Shown here piece by piece: positions 7,569 through 32,848 of a stretch of 64,000 nt of DNA. A program made the translations under genes and the position numbers. The stretch is from Gammaproteobacteria bacterium (GTDB lineage Bacteria; Pseudomonadota; Gammaproteobacteria; Steroidobacterales; Rariloculaceae), in contig JAQWRR010000018.1 in NCBI GenBank assembly GCA_029243585.1, positions 2,059-66,058 on the forward strand, written 5' to 3'. Position 1 is the stretch's first letter; each line of letters opens with the position of its first letter. The notes beneath the pieces were generated by a model, which worked only from the letters and a program-made list of their open reading frames with translations, was not told where the DNA came from and did not search any database.

Positions 7569-7589
7569 GCTCTTTTTCGATTAAAGAGC
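7569..7589 (+). terminator. Possible intrinsic terminator after the GldAFG-like operon
   Basis: Perfect 7-bp stem GCTCTTT (7569-7575) / AAAGAGC (7583-7589) with a 7-nt loop, followed by CTTATTT. The stem is AT-rich, so the call is weak. It overlaps the stop of the minus-strand relic ORF. Confidence 0.35.
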
Positions 7590-8069
7590 CTTATTTAAAG
7601 ATTTAATTTCATGGGAAACTTTAACTTCTTTAGTTTTAAAAAAGAGCTCATGATTTTTTTCTACTATATCTAGGTCATATAGGTAATTAACCATAAGGCC
7701 TAGAGACTCAGAAACCCCTTTTTTAGAATTATCAGCATTTAAGTTAATTTTTTCTAATATAGACTCAGGAACTTTTTTACAAAGAGCCACTTCAACGAAT
7801 ATTAGAGGTTCATCTGGTATTAAAGGATGAAAAAAAGCAAAGCATTTTCTATCTGAAGGAGCGAGCCTAGCCCTTAAATCATCCCATGAATTAATTGCTT
7901 GAACAGCTTCATAGGCAATGATTTTTTCTAGGATGCTTGCAGGAGTAGACCAATCTATTTTCTCTAATACAAGAAAGGAAGGATTAAACCAATATTTGAA
8001 TAATTTGAGTAAGCTTGTTTCAAATGAATCAAGGCTTTTATGATTAAGGTTTTTGATTCTTGATCGCAA
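7581..8069 (-). pseudogene. Malonyl-CoA decarboxylase relic, lacking the N-terminal domain and with the central catalytic segment deleted
   Basis: DWSTPASILEKIIAYEAVQAI...RKCFAFFHPLIPDEPLIFVEVAL matches the conserved mid-region of malonyl-CoA decarboxylases. GLMVNYLYDLDIVEKNHE matches their C-terminal motif. Only about 35 aa separate these two blocks, whereas roughly 200 aa separate them in intact enzymes. The ORF opens with a TTG just after an in-frame stop at 8124-8126. The segment is noticeably AT-rich. Confidence 0.7.
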
Positions 8070-23221: not shown

Positions 23222-23962
23222 ATGTGTCTAGTAGCATTTGCCTTTGGTGTTTCCAAAGATTACCCATTAATATTTGCAACTAACCGAGATGAATTACACG
23301 CAAGGCCTACTTTAAGGGCCAAGTGGTGGGAAGATCATGAGCATATACTCGGAGGGCGAGATCTCCTCGCTGGAGGCACATGGCTAGCGGTAGACCAAAC
23401 AGGTCGGCTAGCTGCAGTAACAAATATACCGTCGAATCAAGATGTCATATTCGAAAAATCACGCGGACACTTGGTTAGAGACTATCTCATCGGCCAGAGC
23501 CCTATTGATCAGTTTATATCCACACTTGATGGTGGTGGTGGGTATGCGCCTTATAACTTACTGGTTTTTAATGGCGTTAATATGCTTTATTCAAGCAATA
23601 AAGTACCTGAAAAATTACTATCTCCAGGCACATATGCAATTAGTAATGCTCCAATGGGAACGCGTTGGCCAAAGATACATTATGCTGAATCGATTATTAG
23701 ATCTGCATTAACTAGTGCCACTCCAGAAAATGATTTGTTTGAGATGCTTGAAAACCAAGACTCTCAGAGCCTTGAAGAAAATTCACTCGACTATGATGAT
23801 CGTCAGTCACGTACCTTTATTAATAATAAGTTGTTTGGAACACGCTCTTCAACGGTTATAGTTATCTCAGGTACAGGCGAGGTTAATTTTATTGAGCGTC
23901 TTTATAATCCGGATGGCAGACGCTTAGAAGAAAATAAATACAGATTTAATCTTGGTTTTTAA
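23222..23962 (+). CDS. NRDE-family protein (TANGO2/DUF833-like)
   Basis: MCLVAFAF opening with the N-terminal Cys, and the literal NRDE motif (FATNRDELHARP). Confidence 0.75.
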   Translation: MCLVAFAFGVSKDYPLIFATNRDELHARPTLRAKWWEDHEHILGGRDLLAGGTWLAVDQTGRLAAVTNIPSNQDVIFEKSRGHLVRDYLIGQSPIDQFISTLDGGGGYAPYNLLVFNGVNMLYSSNKVPEKLLSPGTYAISNAPMGTRWPKIHYAESIIRSALTSATPENDLFEMLENQDSQSLEENSLDYDDRQSRTFINNKLFGTRSSTVIVISGTGEVNFIERLYNPDGRRLEENKYRFNLGF

Positions 23963-24626
23963 ATTGTTTTTCTAACCATTCTTTTATGTCGGCCACCTCC
24001 TCTTGGCATATAGAATGTTCCATAGAGTAAGTACGCCAATCCACTTGGTAGCCTTCGGATTTCAAAATTTCTTTTGAGCGTTTGCCGTAGGACTCAGGCA
24101 CTGTAGGGTCCATACTTCCATGAGCCATAAAAATAGGCGTTAGCTTATTAGCATCTGTTTTCTTTGATGAAAATTTCTTTGCTAGTGGCAAATAACCCGA
24201 TAGCGCAATGATTCCCGCAAGTGGATTCATTTTTGTTAAGCCAGTGTATAGCGCCATAGCGGCCCCTTGAGAAAATCCGACAAGAAATAACCGAGTTGAA
24301 GGTATACCTCGCTCAGCTTCTATTCCGATCAGTTGTAAAATTTCGGAAGAGCTTTTGCGAATACCATGCTCATCTTCCAATCCTCCACGCTCAAGAGAAA
24401 AAATGTCATACCAAGCCCTCATTGGGTAATTGCCATTGATAGTAACGGGTCGAATAGGGGCATGTGGAAAAATAAAACGAGCAGATTCAGATAAATTAAG
24501 TTGTGGAATTATTGATTCAAAATCATGTCCATCTGCCCCCAAACCATGTAGCCAAATTATGCTCCAAGATGGATCTATGCCGGTTTCTATTTCTAGGGTT
24601 TCAAGCTTAGTAGTACTCGTTTTCAT
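23946..24626 (-). CDS. Carboxylesterase/phospholipase-type alpha/beta hydrolase
   Basis: IIWLHGLGADGHDF, nucleophile elbow GFSQGA, and a late HG..D/H triad region. I prefer the start at MKTSTT (24626). The 3' end overlaps the convergent NRDE gene by 17 nt. Confidence 0.8.
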   Translation of the reverse strand: MKTSTTKLETLEIETGIDPSWSIIWLHGLGADGHDFESIIPQLNLSESARFIFPHAPIRPVTINGNYPMRAWYDIFSLERGGLEDEHGIRKSSSEILQLIGIEAERGIPSTRLFLVGFSQGAAMALYTGLTKMNPLAGIIALSGYLPLAKKFSSKKTDANKLTPIFMAHGSMDPTVPESYGKRSKEILKSEGYQVDWRTYSMEHSICQEEVADIKEWLEKQFKNQD

Positions 24627-24678
24627 TAATAAAGTATGAATGATTATCCGTCTATATAACAAAAAAGCGTATTTTATT

Positions 24679-24723
24679 TGCATTATTTGCGCATAATTAA
24701 TAATATATGCGCAATTTTATTCA
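24679..24723. promoter_or_regulatory. Candidate ArgR operator (ARG-box-like dyad) in the esterase/argR divergent region
   Basis: Perfect 9-bp inverted repeat TTGCGCATA (24687-24695) / TATGCGCAA (24706-24714). It is flanked symmetrically by TGCAT (24679-24683) and ATTCA (24719-24723), which are half-sites of the TGAAT-N4-ATTCA ARG box. It lies 12-56 nt upstream of the argR ATG. Confidence 0.45.
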
Positions 24724-24734
24724 TACAAGAAACA

Positions 24735-25199
24735 ATGCCTATAACTATCCAACAACAAGGTCGACGCCAATTGATTATGGAACTATTAGCGAATCACCAT
24801 ATTCATAATCAGGCTGAATTGGTTAAATTACTTCGCGTTCAGGGCTATGACGCGACTCAATCTAGCGTAAGTCGTGATCTTCGCGATCTAGGAGCAGCTA
24901 AGCTAAAAGGCGGGTATAGCTTACCCGAACGTTCAGACCAGGATAATGAACAGTCCTTAGGAATGGTTTCGGAGTTCGTGAGAGCCCTTAGATCAGCTGG
25001 GCCAAATCTAATTGTAATAAACACAGCTATTGGCGCGGCCAACCGAGTTGCACTTGTTTTGGATAGAGTTAGTTGGCCAGAAATTGTAGGTACGGTTTCT
25101 GGAGATGACACAATCTTTGTTGCGACGACAGGTATGGCAGCACAAAAACGTCTTGTAGCTCGATTACGAGGCTCTATAAGTAGTGCTGAATTGCAATGA
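24735..25199 (+). CDS. argR: Arginine repressor
   Basis: Winged-helix N-terminal domain (QAELVKLLRVQGYDATQSSVSRDLRDLG) and C-terminal oligomerisation/arginine-binding motifs (TAIGAANRVA, GTVSGDDTIFV). I prefer ATG 24735 over the TTG at 24678. Confidence 0.9.
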   Translation: MPITIQQQGRRQLIMELLANHHIHNQAELVKLLRVQGYDATQSSVSRDLRDLGAAKLKGGYSLPERSDQDNEQSLGMVSEFVRALRSAGPNLIVINTAIGAANRVALVLDRVSWPEIVGTVSGDDTIFVATTGMAAQKRLVARLRGSISSAELQ

Positions 25200-25218: not shown

Positions 25219-26436
25219 ATGAAAAATAACAACTCACCAATAGTACTAGCGTTTTCTGGCGGACTAGATACATCCTTTTGTGTCCCATGGCTTATGGATA
25301 CATATGAACGTCCAGTAGTCACTGCAACAATCAATACAGGCGGATTAACAGCTGCCGATGCAGACGCCCTATCGGAACGTGCTCATGCATTAGGAGCAAA
25401 AGAACATTTTCTAATAGATGCCCGAGAAGAGTTCTTTAACGAAGTTTTAAAATTCCTCATTATTGGGAATGTCCGACGCGGTCAGCTTTACCCGCTCTGT
25501 GTCGGCTCTGAAAGGGGAATCCAAGCGAAATGTTTAGCTAATCTTGCCAGCAAAATTAACTCATGTACCGTAGCTCATGGTTGTACGGCAGCAGGGAACG
25601 ACCAGGTTCGATTCGAGATAGTATTAAAAGCGTTAGCGCCTCAACTCGAAGTGATAGCCCCTGTCCGAGATCATTCTTGGGCGAGGGCAGATCAAGTAGA
25701 GTACCTCGGCAGCCGTGGGCTACCTTTGCCTTCTGCTGGATCCTCATATTCAATTAATCGTGGGCTATGGGGTGTGACTATAGGCGGTACTGAAACTCTA
25801 ACTTCTGAGCAAAGCATCCCAGAATCTGAATGGATCTTGAGTGCTGGTGCACTAGATAAGCCTCCAGCACGAGAGGAATTATCAATTGAATTCTCACAAG
25901 GAGTCCCAGTTAGTCTAAACGGACAGGCATTTCCACCAGTACCCCTCATAGAGAAACTGGAAAGTATTGGCTCAAAGTTTGGAATTGGGCGTGGAATTCA
26001 TCTTGGAGATACCATACTAGGAACTAAGGGACGGGTTGCTTTCGAGGCGCCTGCAGCAGAAATTCTTCTAACCTGTCATCGAGAGCTAGAAAAGCTGACT
26101 CTCTCAGGACTTCAACAACGCATTAAAGATCAAGTAAGTCAGTCTTACGGTGATTTTGTTCATGAGGGCAAGCAGCTTGATCCAGTCTGTCGGGATATAG
26201 AGGCGTTACTTGAATCTTCACAAAACCATGTAAATGGCATTGCTTACTGTCTCCTAGGACCAGGACATGTCTTTGTAAGTGGAGTGGAGTCTCCTCATTC
26301 ACTCATGTCCGCGAGTAAGGGTCAATATGGTGAATCTGCGGGTGAGTGGACAGCCGAGGATGCTGTAGGATTCTCTCGAATATTAGCAATACCCGGGATG
26401 CTACATACTCGGTCTAAAGCAAACGGGGGAGATTAA
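25219..26436 (+). CDS. argG: Argininosuccinate synthase
   Basis: AFSGGLDTS ATP-pyrophosphatase motif. About 400 aa, in arginine operon context. Confidence 0.92.
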   Translation: MKNNNSPIVLAFSGGLDTSFCVPWLMDTYERPVVTATINTGGLTAADADALSERAHALGAKEHFLIDAREEFFNEVLKFLIIGNVRRGQLYPLCVGSERGIQAKCLANLASKINSCTVAHGCTAAGNDQVRFEIVLKALAPQLEVIAPVRDHSWARADQVEYLGSRGLPLPSAGSSYSINRGLWGVTIGGTETLTSEQSIPESEWILSAGALDKPPAREELSIEFSQGVPVSLNGQAFPPVPLIEKLESIGSKFGIGRGIHLGDTILGTKGRVAFEAPAAEILLTCHRELEKLTLSGLQQRIKDQVSQSYGDFVHEGKQLDPVCRDIEALLESSQNHVNGIAYCLLGPGHVFVSGVESPHSLMSASKGQYGESAGEWTAEDAVGFSRILAIPGMLHTRSKANGGD

Positions 26437-26438
26437 TC

Positions 26439-27512
26439 ATGCGTCCCTTTATCGTAGATAAGATTGCATCGGTAGCAATTGGCACAGAAATTGGTCGAGA
26501 AATCCGAACTAGCGCTGAAATTCCCTGTGAAGAAGGTGTGCTAGTAGCAGTTGAGGTCCTAAATAATAAGTCACGCTATAACACCTTAGAGCTAACAAGC
26601 GGACGTATGGCTCAAGTGAAACGAGGAGACATAATTGTTGGGGCTCTTGGACACCGTAAGGCCCTTTTTGGATACTCCGGACATCTACCAGAAAAGCTCT
26701 CTCCAGGCGATATTGTTCAATTACTAAACCTAGGTGGTGTATTAGGAGTTTGCGATTCTGTAAACCCGAATCAAGGGAAACCTTTCGACTGCCGAGTGCT
26801 AGGTGTTGTACTTGACTTTCCTTATCTTGGCGAACGAATCGGCGTACCAGCACGAGTAAATAATGTGCCTATTAAAGATCTATCACCACTTAGTCTAGCC
26901 GATACCCCTATAGTAGCTTTTGCCGGAACCTGCATGGATTCTGGAAAAACGGCTGCAGCATGTGCTGTGATAAGCCGCTTTTCGCAACGAGGACTAACCG
27001 TGGATGCATTTAAATCAACGGGAGTTGCTCTGCAACGTGACATTCTTGCCATGGAGGATGCAGGTGCTCGTAACACAAGAATTTTTACTGATCATGGTGT
27101 TGTTTGTACAACATCCGATAATGCCCCGGAGTTGACTCGCAAACTTATGGTTGGGCTTGCTTCTGAAAAACCGGATGTGATTGTATTTGAGCTTGGGGAT
27201 GGAATGCTTGGTGCCTATGGAGTTGAGGCGATCCTGCTAGATCCAGAAATAAATAAGGCTCTAAGTGGTGTAGTGCTGTGTGCTAACGACCCAGTGGGCG
27301 CTTGGGGTGGAGTCAAACTTCTTCGAGAAGAATTTAATATCGAGCCGATTGCAGTAACTGGCCCAGCCACTGATAACTTGGTTGGAATTGAAATTATCGA
27401 ACAACGTATCAAGGTTCGTGCGGCGAATGCACTTACACATGGTGCTGACTTGGGTGACTTGATACAAGATCAGATAGGACTTGCCCCAAAACAAGTTGAG
27501 GTTTCTCCATGA
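26439..27512 (+). CDS. Uncharacterised protein X with a dethiobiotin-synthetase/DUF1611-like P-loop domain, embedded in the arg operon
   Basis: Starts 2 nt after the argG stop, and its stop overlaps the argC ATG (ATGA). GTCMDSGKT (nt 26925-26951), a downstream KSTG and PDVIVFELGDG resemble the BioD/CobQ/DUF1611 fold pattern. The N-terminal 150 aa or so are unassigned. Confidence 0.6.
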   Translation: MRPFIVDKIASVAIGTEIGREIRTSAEIPCEEGVLVAVEVLNNKSRYNTLELTSGRMAQVKRGDIIVGALGHRKALFGYSGHLPEKLSPGDIVQLLNLGGVLGVCDSVNPNQGKPFDCRVLGVVLDFPYLGERIGVPARVNNVPIKDLSPLSLADTPIVAFAGTCMDSGKTAAACAVISRFSQRGLTVDAFKSTGVALQRDILAMEDAGARNTRIFTDHGVVCTTSDNAPELTRKLMVGLASEKPDVIVFELGDGMLGAYGVEAILLDPEINKALSGVVLCANDPVGAWGGVKLLREEFNIEPIAVTGPATDNLVGIEIIEQRIKVRAANALTHGADLGDLIQDQIGLAPKQVEVSP

Positions 27513-28570
27513 ATGAAACACTACCCGTAATTTTATTGGGCGGCTCAGGATATGTTGCGGGCGAACTTCTGCGACTGATTGCTTTGCACCCCCGACTTGA
27601 ATTGGCACATGTAATCTCCAGTAGCCGACAGGATGAGCCTATTGCAGACGCCTTCGGACACCTAGCTGCCATTTATCCAACAAAAAAATTTACCTCAATA
27701 AAACAGTGCACCGAAAGGCTAGAAGAATTTCCTCATTGGATAACTATTTCAGCCGCTCCCCATGGAGCATCAGCTGGCTTGATAGATCAATTTCTGCAAA
27801 ACGCGGAAAAAACCAAAGTACGCATGACTGTAATTGACGCGTCTGCAGACTTCCGGCACCCATCTTCAGAACGTTTTATGGAGATTTATGGACAAGCGCA
27901 TACAGCTCCCCACCGACTCGATTCTTTCAGCTGCGCAGTACCAGAACACTTGGAGGTTCTTAATACGCCCCATGCTGTTCAGCCTGGCTGTTTTGCCACA
28001 TCAATGCTTTTAGCCATTGTTCCACTGATTAAGTTGGGGCTCGTTGAACCAGAGTTTTTTGTCAGCGCAATAACAGGCAGTACAGGAGCGGGACGTGTTC
28101 CAAGGGATACAACACACCACCCAATGCGCCAAAGTAATTTATTTGCCTACCAGCCTCTACAACACCGACATGACCCTGAGGTCTGTGACATTGTGCATGC
28201 TTGCACCGGGAGTGATATTAAATTGCACTTCGTTCCCCAGTCTGGTCCCTTTTCGCGCGGAATACACGCGACGGTCTTTGCGCCATGTGCTGGAAAATCT
28301 GACCAAGAATTGATTGCTACACAACTAGCAGAATTTTATCAAAACTCTGACTTCGTAAACATTGTGTCTATGCCCCCCAAACTCAAAGATATTGTAGGCA
28401 CTAATAATGCCGCCCTAAGCATCAATGTCGATAAAGGTGCGGTAGCTGTCTGCTGCGTAATTGATAATCTTGTTAAAGGGGCAGCCGGTGGTGCAATTCA
28501 GTGGGTAAACCGACTAGCTGGCTGGCCAGACTCTGAGGGTCTTATTATTGCTCCGGCAGGATGGGTGTGA
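27509..28570 (+). CDS. argC: N-acyl-gamma-glutamyl-phosphate reductase
   Basis: N-terminal GGSGYVAGELLRL Rossmann motif, catalytic Cys in QPGCFATS, and operon context. Confidence 0.9.
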   Translation: MNETLPVILLGGSGYVAGELLRLIALHPRLELAHVISSSRQDEPIADAFGHLAAIYPTKKFTSIKQCTERLEEFPHWITISAAPHGASAGLIDQFLQNAEKTKVRMTVIDASADFRHPSSERFMEIYGQAHTAPHRLDSFSCAVPEHLEVLNTPHAVQPGCFATSMLLAIVPLIKLGLVEPEFFVSAITGSTGAGRVPRDTTHHPMRQSNLFAYQPLQHRHDPEVCDIVHACTGSDIKLHFVPQSGPFSRGIHATVFAPCAGKSDQELIATQLAEFYQNSDFVNIVSMPPKLKDIVGTNNAALSINVDKGAVAVCCVIDNLVKGAAGGAIQWVNRLAGWPDSEGLIIAPAGWV

Positions 28571-29730
28571 TGATAACTCCACAAACAGCCAATCTGACCG
28601 AGGTTTACCCTCTAGTGCCCTTCCAACCGATAACCGGTCAGGGCGTTTTTCTCCGAGATGCCCAAGGGCGTGAAGTATTGGACCTCTACGGAGGTCATGC
28701 TGTTGCATCCTTGGGTTACGGTCACCCACGCCTTACATCAGCAATCAAAAAACAAGCAGAAAAACTTTTATTTCAAAGTAACCTTGTTGCAATGAATATC
28801 CGCGACGAGGCTGCAGAAAAGCTCGCTGATTTTGCACCTGATGACCTATCACGGGTTTTTTTCGTCAATAGCGGCTCAGAAGCGAATGAGAACGCTTTAA
28901 GGATCGCACTCCAGTCTACTGGACGTTCCAAAATCATAGCAGTGGAACATGCGTTTCACGGACGCACAGGTGCGGCAGCAGCAGTTACATGGGGTGCTAA
29001 AACAAGCTGGTATGGTTTTCCACATACCCCTTTCGATGTCACATTCGTACCGCGGAATGATGTAGCAGCACTGCGTGAGGCAGTTGACAATAATACTGCG
29101 GGAATAATCATCGAACCGGTACAAGGAGTTGCAGGCGCCTTTGATTTCTCCAAAGAATTTTTAGTCGCAGCACGTGAATCATGCGATCAACATAGCGCTA
29201 TGCTAATTCTAGACGAAGTTCAGACTGGTGTGGGCCGTTTAGGTACACCATTTGGGGCAGATCTTTTTGGGGTAACACCTGATTTACTAACCACCGCTAA
29301 AGCATTAGGTGGCGGTGTCCCTTGTGCAGCAATACTTATGACTGATAGCTTAGCTAAAGACCTTGGGCCTGGGGCCTTGGGCTCAACATTTGGCGGAGCG
29401 CCACTTGCCTGCGCAGCAATTAAAACTGTGCTTGAAATAATTGAGGAGGAAAATCTTTTAGCTAATATTAAAAAAATAGGGGATTTAATCCGTAACAAAT
29501 GTGTTTTCGGACCAATCCAAGAAGTACAGGGTGCTGGCTTCTTAATTGGTCTAAAAACCAAACCACGAGCAGCCCATGTTAGGGATGCCTTACTTCGCTG
29601 CGGAATCCTTACAGGAACAAGTTCAGACCCACATGTATTGCGCTTGTTGCCTCCATTTATTCTCGAAGAGCAGCACGTAAACCTGCTCTTGCAAGCTCTA
29701 GAGGAGTTTAAAAGTGAAACGCTTCAATGA
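28561..29730 (+). CDS. argD: Acetyl-/succinyl-ornithine aminotransferase (class III PLP)
   Basis: GSEANE, DEVQTG, and the TTAKALGGG PLP-lysine region. Overlaps both argC and argF'. Confidence 0.9.
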   Translation: MGVMITPQTANLTEVYPLVPFQPITGQGVFLRDAQGREVLDLYGGHAVASLGYGHPRLTSAIKKQAEKLLFQSNLVAMNIRDEAAEKLADFAPDDLSRVFFVNSGSEANENALRIALQSTGRSKIIAVEHAFHGRTGAAAAVTWGAKTSWYGFPHTPFDVTFVPRNDVAALREAVDNNTAGIIIEPVQGVAGAFDFSKEFLVAARESCDQHSAMLILDEVQTGVGRLGTPFGADLFGVTPDLLTTAKALGGGVPCAAILMTDSLAKDLGPGALGSTFGGAPLACAAIKTVLEIIEEENLLANIKKIGDLIRNKCVFGPIQEVQGAGFLIGLKTKPRAAHVRDALLRCGILTGTSSDPHVLRLLPPFILEEQHVNLLLQALEEFKSETLQ

Positions 29731-30715
29731 TCTAACTGACTTTTCCACGCAGGAAATCAAATCTCTACTCAAACTAGCTAGCCGACTTGAGCAAAAACCA
29801 GAGCCTCGTGCCTTAGAAGGAAAGGTTCTCTCCTTGCTTTTTTTGAGCCCTTCCTTGCGAACACTGGCGTCATTTCAGGCGGCCATGTCTAAACTTGGGG
29901 GTAGCTCATTTGTCATTTCACCTGATATGTCTATCCATGGTCTGGAAACACGGCCAGGTATTGTCATGGACGGTGAGGCAGCAGAACATATTCGCGAAGC
30001 AGTACCGGTTATAGCCTCCTATGGTGATGCCATTGGAATCAGAGCATTTGCCGAACGCAAAAACCTTGAGCAGGATCTAGCCGATCGGGAGTTTGAGAGT
30101 CTCGCTTCACTAGCAAATGTTCCACTAATCAACATGGAATCTGCTATTCAACACCCGTGTCAAAGCCTAGCTGACTGGAAAACCATGGATGATTTGAAAA
30201 TACCTAGCAATGGCGGACGCTTCGTTCTTTCTTGGGCATATCACCCAAAGGCTTTACCGTTAGCTGTGCCATCTTCAACAGTCCGAATGGCTGCTCAACG
30301 CGGCATGGATGTTGTTGTGCTTCGTCCTCCTGGCTTTGAACTACCATCGAAAATTATGCAGGATGCCAAAAGGCTTGCTACTGAAAATGGCGGTAACGTT
30401 TCAGAAACTGATAATCGTCACGAGGCCATGGAAGGCGCAAACGTGATCTATGCGAAGTCATGGTCATCAACCTCTCATTATGGCGATCGATTAGGGGATC
30501 AGGCACTGCGAGAAAATCTTTTAGATTGGTGTGTTGATGAACCTTGGTTTGACAACTCTCGAGAAGATTGCCGCTTTATGCATTGCCTTCCTGTTCGCCG
30601 AGGCGTAGTCGTAGCTGATCGGATACTAGATGGACCTCGCAGTGTAGTGATTCAAGAGGCAAATAATCGCATGAAGGCACAGATGGCTGTACTTCACCGG
30701 ATGCTAAAAGGTTAA
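29714..30715 (+). CDS. argF': N-acyl-L-ornithine carbamoyltransferase (ArgF' type, acetyl- or succinyl-ornithine specific)
   Basis: Transcarbamylase motifs SLRT, HPCQ and HCLP are present, but there is no DxxxSMG ornithine loop. It has YAKSWS instead and is collinear with remembered Xanthomonas acetylornithine transcarbamylase. GTG start. Confidence 0.8.
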   Translation: MKRFNDLTDFSTQEIKSLLKLASRLEQKPEPRALEGKVLSLLFLSPSLRTLASFQAAMSKLGGSSFVISPDMSIHGLETRPGIVMDGEAAEHIREAVPVIASYGDAIGIRAFAERKNLEQDLADREFESLASLANVPLINMESAIQHPCQSLADWKTMDDLKIPSNGGRFVLSWAYHPKALPLAVPSSTVRMAAQRGMDVVVLRPPGFELPSKIMQDAKRLATENGGNVSETDNRHEAMEGANVIYAKSWSSTSHYGDRLGDQALRENLLDWCVDEPWFDNSREDCRFMHCLPVRRGVVVADRILDGPRSVVIQEANNRMKAQMAVLHRMLKG

Positions 30716-30721
30716 CTAAAT

Positions 30722-31651
30722 ATGCCACGATTAAGTCAAAACGAAAGGGCTATTGCTGTGAATTCTCTGAAACGTGCTACACCGTATATACGAATGTTTA
30801 AGCGTAAGGTTTTTGTCCTCAAAGCAGGTGGTGATGCCTTCGCAACGATAGAGGGAACGCGCGCCATAATGGAACAGGTGGGAATTCTCCATGATGTGGG
30901 AATACGCGTCATCGTAGTACATGGCGGAGGGCCTCAATCCACTGAGCTATCCAAAGCACTAGGCGTATCGGCCGAGTTTATTGATGGCCGCCGGGTGACT
31001 GACAAAAATGCTCTCGAAGTTGCAATGATGGTTCTAAATGGACAAATCAATACACGACTTCTAGCCGCATGCCGTGATCTTGATATACCTGCTGTTGGTA
31101 TCAGTGGTGTAGATGCTGGCCTCATCAAGGCCCACAAACGACCACCAGTTCTTAGTGATACAGGTGGAACCGTAGACTATGGGTTCGTTGGCGATATCGA
31201 TGAAGTCGACCCTAGCATTCTACTAAAGCAGTTAGATAACGATCTCATTCCAATAATTAGCCCTCTATCGGCTGACGAATCAGGTACATTGTTGAATATC
31301 AATGCAGATACTGTAGCTGCAGCTGTGGCTGTGGCTCTCGAAGCAGAAAAACTGATACTGGCTACTGGAGCTCCTGGGATTTTGGAATCAATAAATGATC
31401 TCCGCTCCGTGATCTCATATCTGGACATAGCGGGCCTAGAAAAATTACGTAGCGAAGGGTGCCTCTCCGATGGAATGCTACCCAAGGCTGCTGCAATTGA
31501 AAGTGCTCTTGCCGGAGGAGTTCCACGTGTCCATGTGATTTCATATGATCTTCCAGACAGCCTTCTGCTTGAAGTTTTCACAAATGAAGGCATGGGAACT
31601 CTCGTTGTTAATGACATCCAGAATCTCACGCCTGCTGAACAACAGGGGTAG
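30722..31651 (+). CDS. argB: N-acylglutamate kinase
   Basis: VLKAGGDA, VVHGGGPQ and INADT motifs of the amino-acid kinase family. At 309 aa there is no fused synthase domain. Confidence 0.92.
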   Translation: MPRLSQNERAIAVNSLKRATPYIRMFKRKVFVLKAGGDAFATIEGTRAIMEQVGILHDVGIRVIVVHGGGPQSTELSKALGVSAEFIDGRRVTDKNALEVAMMVLNGQINTRLLAACRDLDIPAVGISGVDAGLIKAHKRPPVLSDTGGTVDYGFVGDIDEVDPSILLKQLDNDLIPIISPLSADESGTLLNINADTVAAAVAVALEAEKLILATGAPGILESINDLRSVISYLDIAGLEKLRSEGCLSDGMLPKAAAIESALAGGVPRVHVISYDLPDSLLLEVFTNEGMGTLVVNDIQNLTPAEQQG

Positions 31652-31657
31652 AGCTCG

Positions 31658-32848
31658 ATGGCACGATTATGGGATAAGGGTAAGCCGCTGGATGAACGAA
31701 TACTTAAATTCACTGTCGGGGAAGATCATAAGCTCGATGAGCGATTACTTAAATATGACGTACTTGCTTCCATCGCCCACACTCAAATGCTCGAGGAGCA
31801 AGGATTACTAACGTCTTTAGACTCTAAAGCAATCTGTGGTGGTTTAAAAAAACTACATAAACAGCATTCTCAGGGCCAATGGTCCATAAGCTTAGAAGAG
31901 GAAGATGTTCATGGGGCATTAGAAGCACGTCTCATAGAGCTCATTGGCCCAGCTGGCGGAAGAATGCACTTGGGACGTTCCAGGAATGATCAGGTGCTCG
32001 TAGCACTGCGACTATATCTGAAAGATGCAACTAACACTCTTCAGTTAGGAGCAGAAGCCGTATCAGATGCTTTAGAGGCTCTGGCCAAACGTCAGGGAGA
32101 TATTCCTCTACCTGGTTATACACATATGCAACCAGCCATGCCCAGTTCTGTCGGCCTCTGGGCTAAAGGCTTCTCAGCAGAGATTCGTGATGATGCCCGA
32201 GGCCTAAACGTTGCAAAATCACGAGCCGACTTTAACCCACTGGGCTCAGCGGCAGGATATGGCACACCAGGAATCAATATCAATCGCGAATCAACGACGA
32301 AACAATTGGGTTTTTCATCTGCTCATGAACCTGTAACTGCGGTCCAACTTAGCAGGGGCAAAGCTGAGGCTACTCTTACATTTGAAATAGCGCTGTTGCT
32401 TGGAGACCTTAGTCGTCTCGCGTCAGACCTATTACTGTTTTATACAAGCGAGTTTGCATTCGTAAGCCTCCCACATGAAATGACTACTGGCTCTTCGATA
32501 ATGCCGCAAAAACGTAATCCAGATGTGCTTGAACTAGTCCGTAGTACGCAGGCTGTTGCAACAGGTGCCTTGACTGAGATTCTAAGCATTACAACAAAAC
32601 TCAATTCTGGATATCAACGTGACTTACAGCGAGTTAAAGCTCCCTTATTCCGAGTCATTGACCTTGCAAATGACGCATTAGGAATCATGGAATACACACT
32701 CGAAGGAATCACCTTCAAACCAGAGAATATACATCTGGATTCTGAACTTAATGCAGCAGAACAGGCAAATCGATTGGCTATAGAAGAGGGTATTCCCTTC
32801 CGAGAGGCTTACCAAAAAATTGCTAGCTTACTTGATAAAATTGACTAA
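31658..32848 (+). CDS. argH: Argininosuccinate lyase (short form)
   Basis: Fumarase/aspartase superfamily signature GSSIMPQKRNPD. The N-terminus is of the Bacteroidetes/Xanthomonas kind (LWDKG...FTVGEDHKLD). It ends shortly after GIPFREAY, so it lacks the usual C-terminal extension. Confidence 0.88.
   Translation: MARLWDKGKPLDERILKFTVGEDHKLDERLLKYDVLASIAHTQMLEEQGLLTSLDSKAICGGLKKLHKQHSQGQWSISLEEEDVHGALEARLIELIGPAGGRMHLGRSRNDQVLVALRLYLKDATNTLQLGAEAVSDALEALAKRQGDIPLPGYTHMQPAMPSSVGLWAKGFSAEIRDDARGLNVAKSRADFNPLGSAAGYGTPGININRESTTKQLGFSSAHEPVTAVQLSRGKAEATLTFEIALLLGDLSRLASDLLLFYTSEFAFVSLPHEMTTGSSIMPQKRNPDVLELVRSTQAVATGALTEILSITTKLNSGYQRDLQRVKAPLFRVIDLANDALGIMEYTLEGITFKPENIHLDSELNAAEQANRLAIEEGIPFREAYQKIASLLDKID

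Follow-up and report, generated by a model that had tools for sequence, protein, structure and literature searches.

A P-loop protein encoded within a gammaproteobacterial arginine operon as a predicted N-succinyl-L-glutamate synthase

Which gene provides the first committed step of arginine synthesis where an arginine operon is found without ArgA or ArgJ? The question is raised by a 64-kb stretch of DNA from a Gammaproteobacteria bacterium of the Rariloculaceae (contig JAQWRR010000018.1; hereafter the window, 64,000 nucleotides), whose open reading frames (ORFs) include the series argR-argG-X-argC-argD-argF′-argB-argH, with the neighbours of X assigned by Pfam and NCBIfam. X (26439..27512, + strand, 357 aa) is predicted here to be an N-succinyl-L-glutamate synthase, a non-orthologous substitute for ArgA. 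With moderate confidence, we favour an enzyme that uses succinyl-CoA as donor and replaces ArgA/ArgJ at the first committed arginine step. The original prediction, made from the letters of the window, had read X as a possible non-orthologous N-acylglutamate synthase or, alternatively, as an enzyme for an ATP-dependent activation or ligation; as a predicted function, with succinyl as the probable acyl group, the first of these readings is supported. The gene structure, the fold, the family-wide arginine linkage, the co-occurrence with separate deacylases and the succinyl-type residue of ArgF′ are shown, and we infer from them the reaction, the acyl donor and the residue roles of X.

The idea re-derives an already published prediction, and neither the hypothesis nor the family is new. 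The GapMind 2026 preprint (bioRxiv 10.1101/2024.10.14.618325, version of 2 July 2026) assigns this function, as a prediction, to ACG33_RS14135 (A0A127FCT3) of Steroidobacter denitrificans. The value of the present analysis lies in an independent confirmation of that prediction and in a sharper, partly dissenting structural view. A recognisable gene for the first arginine step is missing from a large group of environmental Gammaproteobacteria, made up of Steroidobacteraceae, Woeseiaceae, Rariloculaceae and Chromatiales-like metagenome-assembled genomes (MAGs), and the same gap occurs in other lineages with acylornithine carbamoyltransferases; X, which has no Pfam family, is the one credible candidate for it. 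If the prediction is true, a pathway hole in genome-scale models would be closed and thousands of annotations corrected. The N-acylglutamate synthases would then include a second fold, unrelated to the first, and the choice between succinyl-CoA and ATP plus succinate would be settled.

Linkage of X to the arginine genes

X is tightly packed between its neighbours. The argG stop codon TAA (26434-26436) is separated by a 2-nt spacer from the X ATG at 26439, and the X TGA (27510-27512) overlaps the argC ATG (27509-27511) in the sequence ATGA at 27509-27512, both as originally described; this layout indicates translational coupling of X to argG and argC. The further overlaps that had been claimed downstream were also found, measuring 10 nt for argC/argD (28561-28570) and, when the GTG of the longest ORF is taken as the argF′ start, 17 nt for argD/argF′ (29714-29730). 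A scan for transcription signals was uninformative: promoter-like sites in the operon were outnumbered by those in shuffled controls, and terminator-like sites were about as frequent as expected by chance.

The linkage extends to other genomes, as the original prediction had proposed to check. A scan of related genomes, with one genome per species, revealed at least 472 species with a relative of X; the counts given here use the best 80, which are Gammaproteobacteria MAGs from Woeseiaceae, Steroidobacteraceae, Rariloculaceae, Chromatiales and Thioalkalivibrio. Arginine genes flank X in 80/80 of these loci, almost always in the order argR-argG-X-argC-argD-argF′-argB-argH, with ArgG directly upstream in 75, ArgC directly downstream in 78, and argR upstream of argG in 72. 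The Steroidobacteraceae MAG orthologues, 64–67% identical to X, occupy the same operon slot, and X is the sole non-canonical gene in their contiguous arginine cluster. For a distant clade, 33–43% identical to X, a metagenome scan seeded with five sequences returned 80 loci, about 72 of which place X among arginine genes in a rearranged order (argR-argG-argH-X-argC-argD-argF′-argB; argG-argF′-X-argC-argD-argB-argH; argG-X-argC-argF′-argB-argE-argH). Single relatives at 30–38% identity, looked up individually, adjoin argH, argF, or argG plus argC. A position between argG and argC, which the original prediction had proposed to check, is the rule in the related loci and one of several arrangements in the distant clade. 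Because the linkage persists through these changes of gene order, it constitutes strong evidence for a role of X in arginine synthesis.

X belongs to a large family. It is identical to NCBI MDG2315500.1, labelled 'MAG: hypothetical protein [Gammaproteobacteria bacterium]', and its 90% cluster contains a Candidatus Rariloculaceae MAG member. More than 7,459 related 90%-identity clusters were found in a search of 5.8 billion proteins; the best 120 share at least 70% identity with X, are about 357 aa long and are all labelled 'hypothetical', none carrying a precomputed Pfam domain. A Steroidobacteraceae query gave the same picture of hypothetical relatives among its best 120 matches. An exhaustive search of 50%-identity representatives retrieved 1,372 of them at E ≤ 0.001, with full-length relatives down to ~30% identity. 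Across the 80 related loci, the median identity was 66.7% for X, compared to 65.3% for ArgG, 67.2% for ArgB, 62.7% for ArgH, 55.3% for ArgD and 49.4% for ArgC, which makes X as conserved as the core enzymes. This conservation, together with the confidently predicted fold described below, rules out X as a chance ORF.

The protein had been said to match no canonical arginine enzyme, and no Pfam or NCBIfam model reaches its threshold for X. The single sub-threshold match in these scans is to a MobB P-loop (E 3e-4); they detected in X neither a GNAT, kinase-like or ArgJ domain nor an M20 or AstE/AspA metallohydrolase domain. A direct sequence search against the PDB sequences likewise gave no match at E ≤ 10.

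The pathway step and its acyl group

The acyl-ornithine route that had been proposed for the operon (ArgB, ArgC, ArgD, ArgF′, ArgG and ArgH) is borne out by the Pfam and NCBIfam assignments of the neighbours. The reported lack of ArgA, ArgJ, GNAT and ArgE genes in the window also held: Pfam scans of 40 other ORFs found no GNAT, ArgJ, M20 or AstE domain, and a tblastn search of the whole window with E. coli ArgA and ArgE, which alone covered six ORFs (starts 19336, 20459, 21191, 22026, 33099 and 47237), matched only the ArgB kinase domain. In the 80 related genomes, the DNA up to ~10 kb from X contained no homologue of the ArgA GNAT domain, ArgE or AstE.

Clusters of more distant relatives narrow down the step. 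In nine distant-clade clusters, X is accompanied by an M20 ArgE-like gene, 25–31% identical to E. coli ArgE, with the Pfam M20 domain confirmed on two of the nine. Five other X clusters (L145, L149, L152, L153 and L167) carry an AstE/AspA-family gene (PF24827) between argB and argH; the L145, L152 and L167 copies were scanned, with E values between 1e-22 and 1e-27. The product of this gene is likely a non-M20 N-succinylcitrulline desuccinylase. The deacylase-bearing clusters thus have genes for the deacylase and for every step from the kinase to the lyase, and X is their sole gene without an assignment. Because everything else is covered there, glutamate acylation is the only step left for X. 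The AstE/AspA family (succinylglutamate desuccinylase/aspartoacylase) is not named in the GapMind 2026 preprint.

The nature of the acyl group is suggested by ArgF′. Alignment to PDB 3l02/3kzc places the window sequence MDGEAAEHI against MDGDTEEHI of the wild-type Xanthomonas N-acetylornithine carbamoyltransferase, with Ala90 (codon 29981-29983, + strand) at the position of Glu92; the best-scoring PDB sequence for the window ArgF′ is the E92A mutant. The equivalent residue is Ala in 68/68 related loci, and in the distant clade it is Thr (23), Gln (10), Pro (8), Ser, Ala or Val, and never Glu. As relayed by the preprint, an A, P, S or V substitution at Glu92 makes the enzyme specific for N-succinylornithine (Shi et al, 2007, via bioRxiv 10.1101/2024.10.14.618325). 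Because ArgF′ has Ala at this position, the pathway of the window is, judging from sequence, probably based on succinyl rather than acetyl intermediates, despite the name of the NCBIfam model.

These features parallel those reported for the Steroidobacter protein. S. denitrificans grows in minimal medium without arginine and lacks ArgA and ArgE; ACG33_RS14135 is a hypothetical protein within its arginine cluster, its homologues are 'virtually always' in arginine operons and never occur together with ArgA homologues, and position 92 of the linked ArgF′ is A, P, S or V in 90% of cases (GapMind 2026). X is likewise a hypothetical protein inside the arginine cluster of Steroidobacter-related Gammaproteobacteria, is accompanied by an ArgF′ whose position 92 is occupied by a residue other than Glu, and has no ArgA nearby, either in the 64-kb window or in the ~20-kb loci of the 80 genomes; unlike ACG33_RS14135, it comes from a marine MAG. 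Since the Steroidobacteraceae arginine cluster is contiguous and X is its sole non-canonical gene, we infer from the operon slot, not from an alignment, that the two are orthologous; ACG33_RS14135 was not among the best 120 matches of the Steroidobacteraceae query.

In the pathway that we propose, X would form N-succinyl-L-glutamate by acylating L-glutamate at its amino group, and ArgB, ArgC and ArgD would turn it into N-succinylornithine. ArgF′ would carbamoylate this product to N-succinylcitrulline, and a desuccinylase encoded elsewhere would free citrulline for ArgG and ArgH. X would thus stand at the same pathway position, glutamate acylation, as the classical N-acetylglutamate synthases (ArgA with kinase-like and GNAT domains, the bifunctional ArgJ, the short GNAT forms and the Xanthomonas ArgA/B fusion); it has no sequence or fold relationship to them.

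Fold of X and the chemistry it may support

The AlphaFold2 model of X, computed with the family alignment as input, has a pLDDT of 95.5 and a pTM of 0.92 and consists of two domains. The first 150 residues or so had been described as a separate, unrecognised domain, which agrees with an all-β domain extending to residue ~130 (26439..26828, + strand). DSSP analysis of the models assigned only strands to it, and the domain modelled alone reached a pLDDT of 93.9. Using Foldseek with this isolated domain, we observed no significant match in the PDB, solved DUF1611 proteins included (best E 1.1, TM-score at most 0.26). Its invariant or nearly invariant residues in the family are S11, G33, E51, G71, R73, G81, P84, G100, G103 and G122, and it is a candidate amino-acid-binding domain. 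The sole sequence hint was a sub-threshold match to EF-G domain 2 (E 0.01).

The second domain (residues ~157–357; 26907..27509, + strand) is an α/β P-loop domain of the BioD/CobQ/MobB (SIMIBI) type, according to Foldseek and weak profile matches, with the α/β fold spanning residues ~157–345 in the model. It contains the motifs that had been pointed out originally, GTCMDSGKT at residues 163–171, KSTG at 192–195 and PDVIVFELGDG at 245–255. In the P-loop (G163–T171; 26925..26951, + strand), which aligns to GTDTEVGKT of BioD, residues G169, K170 and T171 are nearly invariant. K192 (codon 27012..27014, + strand) is invariant in the family and aligned with BioD Lys37, and E251 of ELGDG (codon 27189..27191, + strand) is nearly invariant and aligned with BioD Glu115. 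An alignment of 55 diverse family members, also used for the profile scans below, revealed the conserved motifs LE (E51), LGxRxAL (R73), NxGGVxG, GTxMxxGKT, KxTGVxxxRD (invariant K192, D201), FxDxGxPST, ExGDG (E251), CAxDxxGAWG and GPxTDN. The Cys of GTCM varies across the family, and neither an NKxD guanine motif nor a metal-binding Cys/His motif is conserved in the alignment.

The dethiobiotin-synthetase-like fold that had been proposed for the second half is confirmed by the model, for which Foldseek ranked BioD first in the PDB (3of5, E 5.6e-7, TM-score 0.59 on the target), followed by SRP/FtsY GTPases and HypB. The family profile agrees, finding BioD among the PDB sequences with E 2.6e-4 over the P-loop and the following KxxxG segment. 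Comparison of X with E. coli BioD by hhalign paired K170/T171, K192 and E251 with K15/T16, K37 and E115 (probability 58%, ~100 residues). In BioD, K15/T16, K37 and E115 are ATP/Mg2+ residues, Glu115 being a Mg2+ ligand. Weak, short matches of the 55 members were to MobB (31), CbiA (30), DUF1611_C (27) and AAA_26 (9) in Pfam, and to mobB (40), CobB (17), bioD (14) and cobQ (12 and 9) in NCBIfam; no DgcN model was among the leading NCBIfam families. X resembles BioD in the structural ranking of its C-terminal domain, in the GTxxxxGKT-type P-loop and in the retained Lys37 and Glu115 equivalents. It differs from BioD, a single-domain protein of ~225 aa encoded in bio operons, in its extra 130-aa N-terminal domain and arginine context; X is below the TIGR00347 cutoff, with weak matches in 14 of the 55 members (best E 1e-4). 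CobB and CobQ, the cobyrinic and cobyric acid amide synthases, have an N-terminal ATP-binding domain that belongs to the same SIMIBI P-loop subgroup as that of X, and weak profile matches of only ~40 residues connect them to X; those enzymes act on corrinoid substrates and have a glutamine amidotransferase domain that X lacks.

DgcN, a DUF1611 protein (PDB 7XRJ), is reported to be a D-glutamate N-acetyltransferase (Yu et al, 2023, ISME J 17:537). Both proteins have about 350 aa, two domains and a C-terminal BioD-like P-loop domain, and by analogy glutamate as substrate and N-acylation from an acyl-CoA are proposed for X. Unlike DgcN, which serves D-glutamate catabolism, X would work in biosynthesis, its predicted substrates being L-glutamate and a succinyl donor. 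It also lacks the DUF1611_N domain (PF17396; Rossmann-like according to Pfam), its own N-terminal domain being all-β, and X itself has no PF07755 match, which is found in 27 of the 55 members only weakly (best E 1.3e-5). As to the link to DUF1611 and DgcN drawn in the original prediction, the weak DUF1611_C matches are confined to the P-loop segment (profile positions 11–55 of 201) and are no closer than those to BioD, CobQ and MobB, and no DUF1611_N domain accompanies them. Because the N-terminal domain is all-β without a PDB match and the profile matches are short and weak, X is by architecture not a DUF1611 protein; it joins a P-loop domain of the BioD/CobQ/MobB type to a β domain whose fold is unrecognised. 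A 2025 report of dgcN in Woeseiales was considered as a possible mis-call of X and dropped, as its criterion of > 30% identity to DgcN would not catch X.

In the succinyl-CoA-dependent synthase that we favour, the C-terminal P-loop domain would bind the acyl donor, most likely succinyl-CoA, by its ADP-containing portion, as in the P-loop acetyltransferase DgcN, and the N-terminal β domain, with E51 and R73, may place glutamate at the domain interface. Several observations weigh against such an enzyme. The ATP/Mg residues of BioD are kept in X (P-loop Lys/Thr, K192 and E251), a pattern no less compatible with an ATP-using enzyme than with a CoA-dependent one. DgcN (7XRJ) was not among the 50 Foldseek matches listed, all with E < 1e-4, and may rank lower among the 161 matches with E ≤ 0.001; the 55 members gave no match to DUF1611_N (PF17396, E ≤ 0.1) or DgcN, and the N-terminal domain has no PDB counterpart. 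The privileged similarity to DgcN, on which the acyltransferase analogy is built, is therefore not reproduced. This similarity is the one mechanistic support offered in the preprint, where ACG33_RS14135 was a remote Foldseek match to DgcN (PDB 7XRJ, E 1.4e-7, rmsd 5.6 Å) and the synthase role is explicitly a prediction, without complementation or assay for it (GapMind 2026). In this respect the 50 matches listed for X depart from the preprint, and the structural analysis suggests that the distance of X to DgcN is greater, and that to BioD-like enzymes using ATP smaller, than one would gather from it. Moreover, the desuccinylase gene of the window's clade is also unaccounted for, both in the window and in the ~10 kb around X in the 80 genomes, and a few family members (L141, L143, L146 and P0245) have no arginine linkage.

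Since BioD, not DgcN, ranks first, a BioD/CobQ-like ATP-dependent ligase with the same pathway role, in line with the second option of the original prediction, is a less likely but live alternative. Such an enzyme would phosphorylate free succinate to succinyl phosphate, which the glutamate amine would attack to give N-succinylglutamate, ADP and phosphate, with no acyl-CoA involved. BioD is the best structural match and is found by the family profile in the PDB, the residues paired by hhalign are invariant or nearly so, and the weak NCBIfam matches are to the ATP-dependent, amide-forming CobB, CobQ and BioD and to no acyltransferase; ATP activation of carboxylates for amide formation, as in CobB and CobQ, is the very chemistry required. 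On the other hand, the BioD matches are weak and cover ~100 residues only, the P-loop residues could equally bind the diphosphate of CoA, and the N-acylglutamate synthases known so far rely on either acyl-CoA or transacylation. Among characterised enzymes, DgcN alone acts on glutamate with a related P-loop domain, and it uses acetyl-CoA, as far as the preprint relates (via bioRxiv 10.1101/2024.10.14.618325). The boldest form of this alternative, in which X founds a new enzyme class that combines an unprecedented β domain with a BioD-like ATPase domain and makes N-succinylglutamate from succinate, glutamate and ATP via an acyl phosphate, we likewise regard as rather unlikely. If true, it would represent a CoA-independent entry into arginine biosynthesis, with relatives reused in RimK-linked and carbamoyltransferase-linked natural-product clusters.

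Two further explanations appear improbable. An ArgJ-like recycling transferase, moving succinyl from N-succinylcitrulline (or N-succinylornithine) to glutamate, would fill the ArgA and ArgE gaps at once. It would suit the N-terminal extension of ArgB, which is typical of the arginine-sensitive kinases that in known cases accompany recycling pathways and is weak evidence, as well as the absence of ArgA-type and ArgE/AstE-type genes from the window and the ~10-kb surroundings of X in the 80 related genomes. S. denitrificans, too, is without ArgA and ArgE (GapMind 2026). However, recycling is not required throughout the family, since other clusters carry their own M20 or AstE-type deacylase gene; amide-to-amine transacylation has no known precedent in the P-loop fold, and no invariant Thr, Ser or Cys nucleophile is evident, the GTCM Cys being variable. 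Equally doubtful is a non-enzymatic, nucleotide-dependent accessory factor for the arginine enzymes, be it a scaffold, a regulator or a HypB/UreG/MobB-like metallochaperone. In its favour, the weak matches are most often to MobB, and the structural matches include HypB and SRP GTPases; yet the NKxD and metal-binding Cys/His motifs are not conserved, and their absence led us to reject a G3E metallochaperone. The conservation of X is enzyme-like and includes a second domain with invariant E51 and R73, and a non-enzymatic X would leave the first step without a candidate in organisms that make arginine (GapMind 2026).

That X is the missing N-acylcitrulline deacylase is extremely improbable: ArgE is indeed missing from the window cluster and from S. 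denitrificans (GapMind 2026), but X co-occurs with M20 ArgE-like (nine loci) or AstE-family (five loci) genes in the same operons and is for that reason rejected as an ArgE substitute, its P-loop NTPase-type fold has no metal-hydrolase features, and the preprint reports an anti-correlation with ArgA (bioRxiv 10.1101/2024.10.14.618325).

Neighbouring genes and relatives outside arginine clusters

The cluster opens with argR (24678..25199, + strand), encoding an arginine repressor (PF01316, PF02863 and TIGR01529, E 1e-32), whose longest ORF begins with a TTG, the real start probably lying further downstream. It is followed by argG (25219..26436, + strand), encoding argininosuccinate synthase (TIGR00032, 288 bits; cutoff 268). 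Downstream of X, argC (27509..28570, + strand), with its start overlapping the X stop, matches TIGR01850 with 266 bits (cutoff 234), and argD (28561..29730, + strand), for an acylornithine aminotransferase, matches PF00202 with E 4e-95 and the argD-family NCBIfam models below their cutoffs. The N-acylornithine carbamoyltransferase gene argF′ (29714..30715, + strand) is assigned by NF003384 (336.6 bits; cutoff 288). Next, argB (30722..31651, + strand) encodes a 309-aa N-acylglutamate kinase (TIGR00761, 214 bits) without an acetyltransferase domain and with an N-terminal extension of ~28 residues ahead of the kinase domain. Arginine-sensitive hexameric acetylglutamate kinases carry an extension of this kind. 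The last gene, argH (31658..32848, + strand), encodes a short, 396-aa form of argininosuccinate lyase (TIGR00838, 303 bits) that lacks the C-terminal ~60 residues, the match covering positions 11–386 of the 455 in the model.

Divergent from argR lies a phospholipase/carboxylesterase gene of the Abhydrolase_2 family (23946-24683, − strand; PF02230, E 2e-57), which is kept in 40/80 related loci. Its place beside argR may reflect plain synteny, or the gene may be a candidate for the N-succinylcitrulline desuccinylase of the window's clade. Farther away, a 162-aa ORF (7581-8069, − strand) has a partial match, in two stretches, to the malonyl-CoA decarboxylase C-terminal domain (PF05292, E 2e-41) and is probably a gene fragment or an ORF with a mis-called start.

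Relatives of X were also found in other settings. Homologues 38–39% identical to X (L141, 2234-4215, and L143, 7985-9906) lie on low-GC metagenome contigs without arginine genes, divergent from two tandem RimK-type ATP-grasp (glutamate ligase) genes, which suggests a different, glutamate-related use of the family. X-superfamily genes occur in natural-product-like clusters on plasmids of Priestia megaterium (L173, NZ_CP085446.1) and Bacillus paranthracis (L175, NZ_CP116206.1). Both clusters contain genes for an ornithine or aspartate carbamoyltransferase-like protein and for proteins resembling decarboxylases dependent on thiamine pyrophosphate (TPP), the second TPP half in the Bacillus cluster being labelled 'hypothetical'. 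The Priestia cluster has in addition two ATP-grasp L-amino-acid ligases (Pfam-confirmed), an M20 peptidase and a protein of the phosphoenolpyruvate mutase family, and the Bacillus cluster a TauD dioxygenase, a major facilitator superfamily transporter and a 394-aa hypothetical gene downstream of the X homologue. Another branch of the superfamily lies beside an ABC ATPase gene on Roseobacter-group plasmids. These non-arginine contexts all concern amino-acid modification or ligation, and fit an N-acylating or ligating enzyme under either mechanism.

The Bacillus, Sulfitobacter and Paracoccus copies, found by tblastn against plasmids, are labelled 'DUF1611 domain-containing protein' by PGAP. By hhalign they belong to the X superfamily (99.8% probability), and there was no match to solved DUF1611 structures, so that they provide no bridge between X and canonical DUF1611 proteins. 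In the three plasmid-borne relatives scanned, PF07755 was either absent or below its 25-bit cutoff, restricted to profile positions 11–55 of 201; the Sulfitobacter and Paracoccus copies did not reach the Pfam cutoff, and the DUF1611 N-terminal domain was absent from every plasmid protein scanned.

Finally, two metagenome contigs with X carry a 1,373-aa in-frame fusion of CarB to an ornithine carbamoyltransferase-type protein (L111, 4698-8816, and L114, 3970-8088, both on the − strand). The carbamoyltransferase part comprises the domains OTCace_N (1069–1205) and OTCace (1211–1364), without the ArgF′-specific loop. The fusion gene forms part of a cluster argH-argG-[carB::argF]-carA, which is divergent from X-argC-argB-argD.

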